In this document: positions 51,043 to 54,884 of the stretch, piece after piece
Layout: each line of letters begins with the position of its first letter
Numbering within the stretch: position 1 is the first letter of the stretch
Translations under genes and position numbers: made by a program
IMG/VR virus record: IMGVR_UViG_3300021399_000113
Span: 74,607-138,606 of that record
Origin: a virus
Lineage: Duplodnaviria > Caudoviricetes
DNA: 64,000 nucleotides
Strand: one strand, 5' to 3'
The notes under the pieces: generated by a model
The model's input: only the letters and a program-made list of their open reading frames with translations
What the model was told of the DNA's origin: nothing
Databases searched by the model: none

Positions 51043-51232
51043 ATGAATCTTTTAGAGAAATATAGCAACAGACTTAAAGTTGCTGAGTCTTTATATTCAA
51101 AGACACACAGTGGTGCTCCTATGGACACCAACCAGAAGCTTTGTGTTGCTACTTGCCTTGATAACGTTTCTCGTTATTTAACAGAAGCATTTAACTCAAG
51201 CGAGGGTACACAGAGAACAGATATGGGAGCGT
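51043..51232 (+). CDS. Major capsid protein (T4 gp23-like), exon 1
   Basis: AAGGAG RBS; YLTE|A processing site; joins in frame to exons 2 and 3 (477 aa spliced). Confidence 0.88.
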
Positions 51233-51280
51233 AAACTTATGCGCAATACTGTGGTGACACAGTAGTGTTTATTAAGATAC

Positions 51281-51370
51281 GTGCTTTATAGGACAAAGGA
51301 GTAGCTACCTCGTTAGTACCTACAATTACTAACTTACTATAAAGCATAAGATATTATATCTATGTAGGAG
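51281..51370 (+). ncRNA. Structured leader with anti-SD loop upstream of the intron-1 endonuclease
   Basis: Three-way junction; loop CCTACA is complementary to TGTAGG at the RBS. Confidence 0.6.
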
Positions 51371-51372
51371 AT

Positions 51373-52110
51373 ATGAATATGTATGGTTATGTTTATAAAA
51401 CGACTGACCTAAGAAATAATAAAATCTATATTGGTCAACATAAAAGTGAACAATATGATGATAAATATTATGGGTCGGGAATCATAATTACTTCTTTGAT
51501 AAAGAAATATGGTACACAGAATTTTAAGAATGAGATTTTGTGTGAATGTGCTTCTGCGGAAGAACTAAACGATAAAGAAATAGAATTCATTGCACAGTAT
51601 GATGCAAGAAATCCAGAAATCGGATATAACATTGCAACGGGTGGTGCATTTGGTGATTCTGGTTATCATTTAGGAATGCTTGGAAAAACTCAAACAGATA
51701 AGCAAAAGGCTTGTGCTTCAAAAGCTTGCTCTTACAAAAGGGATAAGAAATTTTGTGAAAGGATGGCACAGCAGACCACAGCCTTGTGGGAAGATGATAA
51801 GTACAGAGAGTTAATGTCCAAGAAACGCAAAGGTAAAATTCCTTGGAACAAAGGGATGACCATAGATGAAGAGACTAAAGAAAAGATTTCCAAGTCAGTA
51901 TCTAAAAGCCTTAAAGATAAATATGAGGCAATGACCGATGAAGAAAAGCTTGCACGTGGTAAAGCAATCTCTGCTGGAAAGAAAGGCAAGGTTGCAGTAA
52001 CTGATGGCAATAAAACTTACTTTGTTTCTTCTGATGAAGTGGATGATTACATACATAAAGGATATTACAAGATGTCCTTACAGAGATATAAGAAACTTAA
52101 TAAACAATAA
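51373..52110 (+). CDS. GIY-YIG homing endonuclease (intron 1)
   Basis: GYVY...KIYIGQH...YYGSG...E...GYN; NUMOD-like C-terminus. Confidence 0.92.
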   Translation: MNMYGYVYKTTDLRNNKIYIGQHKSEQYDDKYYGSGIIITSLIKKYGTQNFKNEILCECASAEELNDKEIEFIAQYDARNPEIGYNIATGGAFGDSGYHLGMLGKTQTDKQKACASKACSYKRDKKFCERMAQQTTALWEDDKYRELMSKKRKGKIPWNKGMTIDEETKEKISKSVSKSLKDKYEAMTDEEKLARGKAISAGKKGKVAVTDGNKTYFVSSDEVDDYIHKGYYKMSLQRYKKLNKQ

Positions 52111-52387
52111 ACAAGGTGAATTATTGGAAACTCTCTTAACATAGTACAGAGTGTTAAGAGACAATCAATAGCCAAGTTCATATATTTTATATGAAAAGGT
52201 TTAACGACTATCGAAAGCATAGTATGTGAGAAATACACATACGAAGAAGTGAGTAGAGTAGGAGATAGTATCTCCGAAGTGCCTTGCATCTTTATTGCGG
52301 TAGCAGTAATAAAGATGGTGATATAGTCTGAACACTATAGTGATATAGTGAGAATAATCGGAAACGGATTATTCATAACACACTTTG

Positions 52388-52424
52388 ATAAGAAATTCTG
52401 TATGACTCTTACAAACGTAGCCTT
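52388..52424 (+). CDS. Major capsid protein, 37-nt micro-exon 2
   Basis: Encodes (Y)KKFCMTLTNVA(L) in frame between the two introns. Confidence 0.85.
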
Positions 52425-52505
52425 TAACTAATCAGAGGCTGTGAGTAGTAATACTCATGGAAATTTAACAGTTACATATTAGTTACATTATAATCATAAG
52501 GTTAT

Positions 52506-52592
52506 AATGTGGGACAGGGAGTTGCAAGCCTTTTTGATTACCCTTAATAATCAAATTACCACATTTATGATATTAAATAAATTTTAAGGGAG
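52506..52592 (+). ncRNA. Structured leader with anti-SD loop upstream of the intron-2 endonuclease
   Basis: Same architecture as 51281-51370; loop CCCTTAA is complementary to TTAAGGG at the RBS. Confidence 0.6.
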
Positions 52593-52600
52593 TTTATTCA

Positions 52601-53359
52601 ATGTATGGTTATATTTATAAAACAACAAATTTAATAACCAATAAAATCTATGTTGGACAAAAGAAATCAAATAAGTTTCTTGGAACAAAATATTTAGGTA
52701 GTGGAACGCATTTAAAAGAATCTGTAAAACATCACGGCAAAGAGAATTTTACTGTTGAGTTTATAGATAGTGCAGAAACCGCTACTGAATTAAATGAAAA
52801 AGAAATTTATTGGATAGATAAATTAGACGCACGAAATCCTCAAGTCGGATATAACATCTCTCTTGGTGGTGATGGTAATACATCTGGTACATCTTGGAAT
52901 AAAGGTCTTACCAAAGAACAAGATGAAAGGTTGATTTGTTCAGAGCAGACCAGAATGAAACGAAGTAAATCGTTGAAAAGGTCTTATGCTGAAGGACAAC
53001 ACAAAGTCAACTTTACTGATGAGATTCGTGCTAAGATGAGTGCTAAAGCAAAGGCAAGACCTCATCTTCCAACTACCAATGGTAAGAAAGTAATAAATAA
53101 TGGAGAAACAAATAAAATGGTTTATCCACAAGAACTTGAAACTTACTTATCAAATGGTTGGGTAGTTGGTAAATTACCCAGTAATAAACCAGCGTGGAAT
53201 AAAGGGTTGACTAAAGACACAAATGAGAGTGTAAACAAATACTCAAAGGCAAGACAAAAGCTAATAGCAAGTGGTAATCGAGTTGGTTTTTGTAATGCTA
53301 AAGGGAATCATTTTTCTAAAGGTCAAAAGGTTAAAGAGTTTGTTGCTGAAAACTGTTAA
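52601..53359 (+). CDS. GIY-YIG homing endonuclease (intron 2)
   Basis: GYIY...KIYVGQ...YLGSG...E...GYN; WNKGLTK repeats. Confidence 0.92.
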   Translation: MYGYIYKTTNLITNKIYVGQKKSNKFLGTKYLGSGTHLKESVKHHGKENFTVEFIDSAETATELNEKEIYWIDKLDARNPQVGYNISLGGDGNTSGTSWNKGLTKEQDERLICSEQTRMKRSKSLKRSYAEGQHKVNFTDEIRAKMSAKAKARPHLPTTNGKKVINNGETNKMVYPQELETYLSNGWVVGKLPSNKPAWNKGLTKDTNESVNKYSKARQKLIASGNRVGFCNAKGNHFSKGQKVKEFVAENC

Positions 53360-53677
53360 AGAAAACGATGTGAAATCGGGGAAAACCTTATTATGGTTTA
53401 GCAATACATAGTAAGACAATCCCGTACCAAGATATGAGAAATCATATAAGGTGTAACGACTATCGAAAGCATAGCCATCAAGAAATATGGTGGTGAAGAA
53501 GCAAGTAGAGTAGAGCCAAGTGGTTGGTATCTATGCGATATTAACATAGAGTAAGCCCATTAAATCGAAGTGCATCGAGTCCAACAAACGTTAATAGGAT
53601 GTTGGATTGTGATATAGTCTAATCTATATAGTGATATATAGAGAATAATTGGACACGAATTATTCGTAATGATAATG

Positions 53678-54884
53678 ACCTAACCTTATTGCTAACGAAA
53701 TCGTACTTGTAAAACCTCTTCCAAGTATGACAGGCTACATCAGCTACATGAAGTATTCTTATGGTAGCACAAAGGGTGGCACTGAAGCTGGTACAGAGTT
53801 AAACAGCCCATTCAAACTTGGTTTAGTTGATAAGAACTATACTTCAAGGTTTGTTCCAGAGGCTAAGCCCGCTGTAGCAAGTGGTGGTGTTGTTGCTGGT
53901 ACTCTTACATGGACACCAGTTGTACCTAATTTCGTAGAATTCGTAATTGGTACTGACGTATATCGTGATGGTGGCGATGGTAAGATTTACAAGGGCAGAA
54001 CTGTTACTACAAAAGACACAACTGATAGTTGGGGTAATGTAACTCCTGCTGGTACAGTTGTTAATGCTGGTACAGAAGTTACTGGTTCTTCTATCAACTA
54101 TCAGACAGGTGCTTATACATTTACAGATGTTACATTAACAGAAGCTACAGCAGTTATGTGTAACTATGTATATGATAACGAAGTTGTTCCTCAGAACGAC
54201 CTTCCTACTATTGTTGGTAAGATGGATGGTATCGCTCTTGTCGCTAAGCCAAGACGTATTGCCATCTACTACAATCAGTTAGCACAATTTCAGGCTAAAA
54301 CGGATTATGGTTTCGACCTTGCTACTCAGTTAGCAGAACAGGCAGTTGGTACACTCTCTGCTGAAATTGATACTGAAATCACAGACTTACTTATTGATAA
54401 CGCTACACTTAAGCCTTCACTTACTTTCAATAAGACTGTTCCTATTGGTATCACAAAGCACGAGCACTATGCTGACTTCACTGAAATCCTTGAGTTAGCT
54501 AAGAAAGAAATCTATGATGTAACACGTAGATTCGTTCCTAACTACATGATTTGTGCAAGTGATATTCTTCCTATACTTGCTTTCATTCCAGAGTTCAAAC
54601 AGGCGTCTACTGGTCAGATAAACGGGCCATATTTCGCAGGTACTCTTGGAAGTCTGAAGGTATTTATTGTACCTCGTACAGATTTCGCTGGCAAGTTCGT
54701 AATTGGTGTAAATGGTAACGACTATATGACAGCGGCTGCCGTCTATGCACCTTACATGCCTATCATCCCAAGTGGTGAAGTAACTTACGCAGATGGTCTT
54801 ACATCTAAGGGTTGGGCTACTATGTACGACCTTAAGATACTTAACCCTCTGTTACTTATCAAGGGACAAATCGTTGCTGAATAA
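53678..54884 (+). CDS. Major capsid protein (T4 gp23-like), exon 3
   Basis: PNLIANEIVLVKP..SMTG; L.AEID.EI; YAPY.P gp23 signatures. Confidence 0.93.

Follow-up and report, generated by a model that had tools for sequence, protein, structure and literature searches.

Here we examine a 64-kb stretch of DNA (the window, by which we mean that whole stretch) from IMG/VR record IMGVR_UViG_3300021399_000113, a 138.6-kb phage from animal-gut metagenomes. The window contains a Gp23-type major capsid gene (51043-54884, on the + strand, as are all window features described below), identified by Pfam matches and present in three pieces, split by two td-like group I introns lying 37 nucleotides (nt) apart. 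Both introns carry an open reading frame (ORF) for a GIY-YIG homing endonuclease, and ahead of each ORF lies an RNA leader that folds into a three-way junction, one loop of which is complementary to the ribosome-binding site (RBS) of the nuclease gene. Leaders of the same kind occur in other phages, and their role is most likely to keep nuclease translation low.

Two leader copies within an interrupted capsid gene

Capsid exon 1 (51043-51232, with a Pfam Gp23 match on the downstream part) ends in U51232, which pairs in P1 of the first intron with the internal guide GCGC. Intron 1 (51233-52387) comprises, in order, P1, P2 (a GNRA hairpin, 51247-51264), leader copy 1, the GIY-YIG ORF, and P3-P9, and its terminal G is 52387. 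It is followed by the 37-nt micro-exon 2 (52388-52424), which, based on reading frame and homologue alignment, codes for (Y)KKFCMTLTNVA(L). Intron 2 (52425-53677, terminal G at 53677) has P1, P2 (again a GNRA hairpin), a spacer, leader copy 2, the second GIY-YIG ORF, and P3-P9, and is followed by exon 3 (53678-54884), recognized from homologues and a Pfam Gp23 match (4e-21). Each intron is preceded by a U that pairs with a G in the internal guide, and its last nucleotide is a G. The exon/intron junctions are fixed by uninterrupted capsid homologues, which show continuous reading (...DMGA[YF]KKF.L.L..VALPNLIAN...); the spliced junctions read GA-Y-KKF at intron 1 and VA-L-PNLIAN at intron 2, both matching the homologues. 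The junction between micro-exon 2 and intron 2 is also uninterrupted in L001, a relative that lacks intron 2. An initial splice assignment for intron 1 (GA/FDKKF) was dropped, as it provides no terminal G, whereas GA-Y-KKF with G52387 fits the homologues.

An Rfam scan of the whole 3.1-kb region returned no match, introns included, which we attribute to a filter effect because the 3' intron parts scanned alone recovered the group I family RF00028 (intron 1: 57.1 bits, E 3e-14, at 52105-52350, model positions 41-253; intron 2: 34.2 bits, E 3e-7, at 53469-53641). The RF00028 alignment covers P3-P9 after the ORF, and the leader lies outside it. P1-P2 are thus located 5' of each ORF and P3-P9 are located 3', with the leaders and ORFs inserted between P2 and P3 of the introns. 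Endonuclease gene 1 (51379-52110) matches the Pfam families SegE_GIY-YIG (7e-7) and NUMOD3 (2e-5), and gene 2 (52601-53359) matches SegE_GIY-YIG (1e-4) and GIY-YIG (4e-3); the N-terminus of gene 2, MYGYIYKTTN, is common to gene 1. There are two in-frame AUGs in gene 1 (51373 and 51379), and the latter (MYGYVYK) is the likely start because it alone combines normal spacing from the Shine-Dalgarno (SD) sequence with an N-terminus like that of gene 2.

The P7 regions of the introns (52196-52260 and 53446-53528) share 81-85% identity with unannotated stretches in Yersinia phage phiR1-37 and two Vibrio jumbo phages (hits H10 and H18-H20), which are probably unannotated group I introns themselves. 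In addition, the string GAGUAG of leader P2 recurs at 52258-52264 and 53508-53515, as well as in hairpins just 5' of leaders linked to TnpB genes. Going by the td intron, we take the two positions in the window to be the P7.1/P7.2 region of IA-type introns; the recurrence may be due to chance or to shared ancestry.

Leader copy 1 (51281-51347) consists of P1 (51281-91/51337-47), the junction sequence GACA (51292-95), P2 (51296-51310), P3 (51312-18/51327-33) with its loop L3 (51319-26), and UUA (51334-36) before P1 closes. The loop reads CCUACAAU, of which CCUACA pairs with UGUAGG at 51363-68, in an RBS module (51354-51381) that also holds a candidate hairpin, P4 (51354-61/51369-76), the SD AGGAG (51366-70), and both AUGs. 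Copy 2 (52506-52565) has the same layout in different sequence, with P1 at 52506-12/52559-65 (extendable to 52500/52571), GACA at 52513-16, P2 at 52517-32, P3 at 52533-40/52548-55, L3 at 52541-47, and UUA at 52556-58. Its loop CCCUUAA pairs with UUAAGGG (52584-90), overlapping the SD AAGGGAG (52586-92), and the corresponding RBS module (52576-52603) includes candidate P4 (52576-85/52589-98) and the AUG at 52601. Computed energies of the L3:target duplexes are -6.4 kcal/mol for copy 1 and -7.3 kcal/mol for copy 2. All of the stems that a preliminary description had reported upstream of the two GIY-YIG ORFs are thus present in the sequence, at the positions it gave, as is the complementarity between the second loop and the RBS of each copy.

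Minimum free energy (MFE) folding with RNAfold returned, for copy 1 (z = -2.2), the three-way junction together with an RBS hairpin downstream of it, and most of the fold for copy 2 (z about 0), and on their own the two window sequences are only suggestive of the leader fold. A covariance model built solely from copies in other phages (R2) detected exactly two sites in the 64-kb window, at 52506-52565 (63.5 bits, E 3e-15) and 51285-51343 (37.9 bits, E 4e-8), with no other at E ≤ 1. Both copies align end to end with R2, and the junction letters are present. Since R2 was built without the window copies and finds only them, the two sites are real and non-random. We also observed a sigma-70-type promoter match, TTAACA-18-TATAAT (11/12), inside intron 2 at 52465-52494, about 6 nt 5' of the extended P1 of leader copy 2; it is kept in a variant of intron 2 without the ORF (described below), and copy 1 has no such match.

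A structured RNA family in uncultured phages

A degenerate pattern derived from the two window copies matched 72 IMG/VR stretches, a number close to the chance expectation for such a pattern, and on inspection about 50 of them had the same full architecture in AT-rich intergenic DNA. For an alignment of 40 sequences (A1), RNAalifold returned P1, P2, and P3, with double changes in 14/19 pairs. A covariance model built from this alignment (R1) found 1-11 copies per record in 30 phage records, including divergent copies outside the reach of the pattern. Covariation was assessed using 93 R1 hits, of which 76 were distinct, against 500 shuffles and slid controls. Across the 76 distinct copies, pairing was kept in 94.1% of 1433 cells (versus 63.7% in shuffles and 42-52% in slid controls), 17 of the 19 pairs showed changes on both sides, and the covariation score of 0.811 (0.226 in shuffles) was reached by 0/500 shuffles. 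G-U cells exceeded A-C cells (98 versus 29), indicating that the fold belongs to the sense strand, and the orientation was always that of the ORF.

The family consensus runs from P1 through the junction G-GAC-A, the short hairpin P2, the hairpin P3, and the junction U-U-A-C to the closure of P1. The closing G-C of P1 hardly varies, nor do the junction letters, G-A-C (then A) on the 5' side and U-U/A-A on the 3' side; GAC and UUA are kept in 75-76 of the 76 copies. The covarying stems and pseudoknot around a conserved junction, initially proposed from two sequences, hold family-wide. The proposed small hairpin is also present, but P2 is better described as a stem of 4-6 bp that has a bulged A and is capped by a small loop, often a palindromic one; it is short and G/C-U-rich, and its apical sequence varies freely in divergent copies. 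The P2 palindrome was at one point drawn as an 8-nt unpaired loop, a version replaced by the longer stem with a small loop. Palindromes of at least 6 nt occur in 18 of 30 distinct P2 sequences, compared with 6.1 in the null. The apex is self-complementary in most variants, for example, GUAGCUAC (window 51301-51308), UUGCAA (52522-52527), GUAAUUAC, GUCAUGAC, GGGUUGCAACCC, UGGCCA, and GCCGGC, and not in some copies, which suggests possible loop-loop dimerization or a symmetric DNA site. A reading of the junction and P2 as a CsrA-type ACARGGA motif was rejected, as divergent copies replace the GGA-containing P2.

ORFs 3' of the leader encode GIY-YIG, TnpB (OrfB_IS605), HNH, or LAGLIDADG nucleases, often with NUMOD modules, and a few have no assignment. 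Most copies are located outside introns, heading free-standing genes with their own promoters, and many of these start 0-10 nt after a sigma-70-type promoter (TTGACA-17-TGnTATAAT). The carrier phages are diverse, and a Gp23 capsid was found in only 2 of the 30 records. Exact matches to the consensus 21-mer were obtained in 86 metagenome stretches, among them contigs labeled human gut, and in only 3 of about 185,000 GTDB species genomes. Two of these three matches are on approximately 100-kb contigs of Clostridia/Eubacteriales metagenome-assembled genomes, and the remaining one is on a Geobacter contig, where the leader model matches only marginally (20.6 bits, E 0.0017). A blastn search of cultured phages (INPHARED) with the consensus leader gave no real match.

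Some carriers show further arrangements around the leader. Two loci (L063:1372-3101 and L067:116-1739) are IStron-like, having a group I core (RF00028, 90.6 and 72.1 bits, respectively) followed by the leader and then a TnpB gene, and in L063 a RAGATH-18 RNA lies downstream. One 89-kb phage fragment (G025, the record of L004/L009) contains 11 leader copies, and the related records G026 and G024 contain 4-6. Copies in these three records each have a different P3 loop and P2 apex, and all have an upstream AAAACACUAAAUAAUA-like box. In L037:1-802, eight tRNA genes are followed directly by the leader and a free-standing GIY-YIG gene.

No Rfam 15 family matched the leader in the window region or in 11 loci (E ≤ 1), and scans of the isolated leader gave only sub-threshold, chance-level hits. 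This applies equally to the riboswitch aptamer classes and ribozyme families of Rfam 15. The best sub-threshold hit was the fourU RNA thermometer (RF01795) on the P4 part of L010, which at 20.7 bits against a gathering score of 60 is not a member. As in candidate P4, a U run in fourU pairs with the SD AGGAG, but the three-way junction has no counterpart there. The int-alpA motif (RF02996, gathering score 35.8 bits) is likewise an orphan phage-associated structured RNA, although kinship is not supported, as its model gave 0 matches at E ≤ 10 in G000, G003, G024, G025, and G026, which together hold 28 leader copies. A search of full-text literature and of sequence strings yielded no description of the motif, with bulk catalogues of predicted phage RNAs (PMC10690425) outside its scope. 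Judged by these sequence comparisons, the leader is a genuine, large, and uncatalogued structured RNA family of many uncultured phages.

Loop pairing with the RBS and linkage to the nuclease gene

Among 79 non-redundant copies with 60 distinct loop sequences, 74 have a P3 loop with at least 6 contiguous complements at 9-27 nt downstream of P1. With loops permuted among copies, at least 6 pairs were obtained in 25%, and the mean length was 4.81, compared with 6.53 observed. The 6-7 nt target abuts or overlaps the SD and always ends in its first G's (..GG/AGG or ..GGG/AG), with the start codon usually 7-11 nt past the target. A second downstream site for the P3 loop was not enriched (35 observed versus 38 in permutations). 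In most MFE folds, the SD purines and spacer are paired with a U-rich tract just 5' of the target to form candidate hairpin P4, which places the target in the P4 loop. The SD of these endonuclease genes is predicted to be base-paired in local structure, based on in silico folding and covariation, as in the RBS hairpins of T-even phages. The family can be regarded as a natural programmable loop-to-RBS lock, in which each copy has its own matching 6-7 nt "key."

Linkage between leader and ORF is illustrated by an 854-nt cassette of the two (52498-53351), which as one block is missing from the intron 2 carried by contigs in three gut-metagenome runs that are related. The joint 52497->53352 was present in each of these runs (X4, X5, and X6), every time on a long-flanked contig of >2 kb. 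Further joints, and peaks of depth, in the same runs at 52112-52414 and 53425-53727 indicate that the intron cores recur on many contigs there. The relative L001, whose capsid is 89% identical, has no intron 2 and carries intron 1 at the same site (L001:4574-5900), where the GIY-YIG gene has a weak RBS and is without a leader. By eye, the N-terminus of the L001 endonuclease resembles that of gene 2 in the window. Because intron 2 exists without the leader and ORF, and intron 1 of L001 exists without the leader, the leader is not a ribozyme domain and belongs to the nuclease cassette. These contigs indicate that leader and ORF come and go together.

Probable control of nuclease translation and competing explanations

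Structures that sequester the RBS control I-TevI, I-TevII, I-TevIII, and segB in T-even phages and mobE in phage Aeh1 (PMC2988022). Opening the RBS hairpin of I-TevI, which unlocks translation, hampers td intron splicing, and a late promoter is situated inside the inhibitory structure (PMC2988022). The leader would likewise hide the SD in cis, ahead of both intron-borne and free-standing phage homing endonucleases, and the rationale is the same, namely to limit the nuclease and to keep ribosomes off the intron so that splicing proceeds. The T-even structures, however, are simple lineage-specific hairpins bypassed by an internal late promoter, whereas the leader is a single portable family that combines a three-way junction and its invariant nucleotides with a pseudoknot between loop and RBS, and that four unrelated nuclease families have in common across diverse uncultured phages. 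Neither TTGTATA (a motif found before the capsid gene) nor a good sigma-70 match occurs in the two window linkers; some linkers in the family are TATAAT-like, and those of short-linker members (9-13 nt) are too short for a promoter. The leader is a variation on the known RBS sequestration in phage homing-endonuclease genes, in a motif absent from Rfam and, as far as searched, from the literature.

Two further comparisons concern the pairing itself. The translational riboswitches preQ1-II and SAM-II use the SD as one strand of a pseudoknot. They resemble the leader as elements of the 5' untranslated region (UTR) with an SD in a pseudoknot integrated with a conserved fold, but the leader precedes selfish nucleases rather than metabolic or transport genes and matches no Rfam riboswitch. 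Kissing complexes, such as ColE1 RNA I/RNA II and the L2-L3 contact of purine riboswitches, likewise engage all of a 6-7 nt hairpin loop in pairing with a complementary loop or segment. The leader differs from these examples in that its contact is made within one molecule, with the RBS on the partner, and in that the loop varies from copy to copy yet stays matched.

We infer that the loop pairing represses translation, mainly as a built-in throttle rather than a signal-controlled switch. The leader is probably a cis-acting RBS lock that throttles nuclease translation and that, in the window, would allow both introns of the capsid pre-mRNA to fold undisturbed. During RNA synthesis, the three-way junction (P1, P2, and P3) would fold and present the 6-8 nt P3 loop, which would pair with the 6-7 nt abutting or overlapping the SD once the ribosome-binding region emerges 10-25 nt further on. 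The rest of the SD and the spacer could then pair with the upstream U-rich tract (candidate P4), giving an intramolecular kissing or pseudoknot complex that would hide the SD from the 30S subunit, so that the nuclease would rarely be translated. In the window, ribosomes would be kept out of both capsid-gene introns, making folding and splicing possible, and, with a very abundant late mRNA as the template, the output of a potentially toxic nuclease would be limited.

Several observations weigh against this lock. The homologous intron-1 endonuclease gene of L001 manages without a leader. At -7.2 kcal/mol on average, the loop:RBS duplex falls short of the computed SD:anti-SD duplex (mean -10.0 kcal/mol), hence occlusion must rest on the whole fold or be partial. 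P4 averages 7.3 bp compared with 6.1 bp with shuffled linkers, a small difference, and is kept as a candidate. Lastly, the invariant junction hints at an extra function, because a plain hairpin would suffice for constitutive occlusion. As simple occlusion does not explain the junction, alternatives involving a signal or RNA processing have to be considered.

One such alternative, possible if unlikely, is a signal-responsive switch, where a small molecule, ion, or protein bound by the junction would stabilize or release the pairing of the P3 loop with the RBS, so that nuclease synthesis is timed or conditioned. It would account for junction nucleotides that are near-invariant while the helices vary freely, for a complex fold (three-way junction plus pseudoknot) in a 5' UTR directly after strong sigma-70-type promoters, and for an SD built into the fold, as in preQ1-II and SAM-II. 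Given the diversity of the carrier phages (Gp23 in 2/30), any partner would have to be a metabolite or a conserved host component. Nonetheless, Rfam 15 provided no riboswitch or other family match, no conserved alternative (anti-sequestering) pairing was found, and the controlled genes share no metabolic theme that hints at a ligand. Autoregulation by the product is unlikely because the four nuclease families are unrelated, and P2 is not a common protein-recognition site, as its loop differs widely between copies within single phage genomes. Alternatively, the mRNA could be inert until processed, in which case the P3 loop would be removed and the SD freed either through RNase cleavage of the single-stranded junction or linker, or through a second promoter in the AU-rich linker. 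The junctions and linker are A/U-rich and single-stranded, and many linkers contain TATAAT- or TATAAATA-like strings, while a late promoter inside the inhibitory structure is the T-even precedent (PMC2988022). This is improbable, however, considering that AT-rich DNA yields such strings by chance, neither window linker has TTGTATA or a good sigma-70 match, and the 9-13 nt linkers leave no room for a promoter.

The remaining explanations place the function elsewhere. A conserved junction core of ribozyme-like size, and P2 palindromes in 18/30 sequences (versus 6.1) that could mean RNA dimerization or a symmetric DNA site, would be in line with a self-cleaving or catalytic RNA in place of a translational operator, or with an element that acts as antisense or at the DNA level (as a site for recombination or protein binding). 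We consider this highly improbable, as no known ribozyme family matches, the P3 loop pairs with the RBS of its own gene, and G-U pairs favor the sense strand (98 versus 29); moreover, the helices keep pairing and not sequence, which argues for an RNA rather than a DNA site. Least credible of all is a peripheral domain of group I introns (a P2.1-like extension) that aids ribozyme folding and has only incidental complementarity to the RBS. Both window copies do lie in introns between P2 and P3, and in L063 and L067 a group I core precedes the leader. The preliminary description had named a known intron domain lacking RBS pairing in its homologues as an outcome that would contradict it, and the opposite was found: the majority of copies are at the head of free-standing genes that have promoters of their own, intron 2 in three runs and the homologous intron 1 of L001 have no leader, and loop:RBS pairing is retained, covarying in 74/79 copies.

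The RBS lock, as the probable reading, would explain how two endonuclease genes can reside inside the most heavily expressed late gene of the phage in the window. For annotation, the leader marks mobile nuclease cassettes and their boundaries. A more speculative and rather unlikely extension is that the leader represents a sensor RNA of a new class, serving selfish nucleases either as a riboswitch or through binding of a host factor. Its GAC/UUA junction would bind a metabolite or conserved cell component indicative of the condition of the infected cell, and would thereby open or close the loop:RBS lock, timing homing endonucleases and TnpB across many phage lineages, while the palindromic P2 loops might add RNA-RNA dimerization. 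If the junction does bind something, the leader would constitute a new class of regulatory RNA. Expression of homing endonucleases and TnpB must not harm the carrier, and hiding the RBS is one solution, as in T4. In many uncultured gut phages, at least four unrelated nuclease families have taken up one portable, highly structured leader, which travels with the ORF as a cassette.

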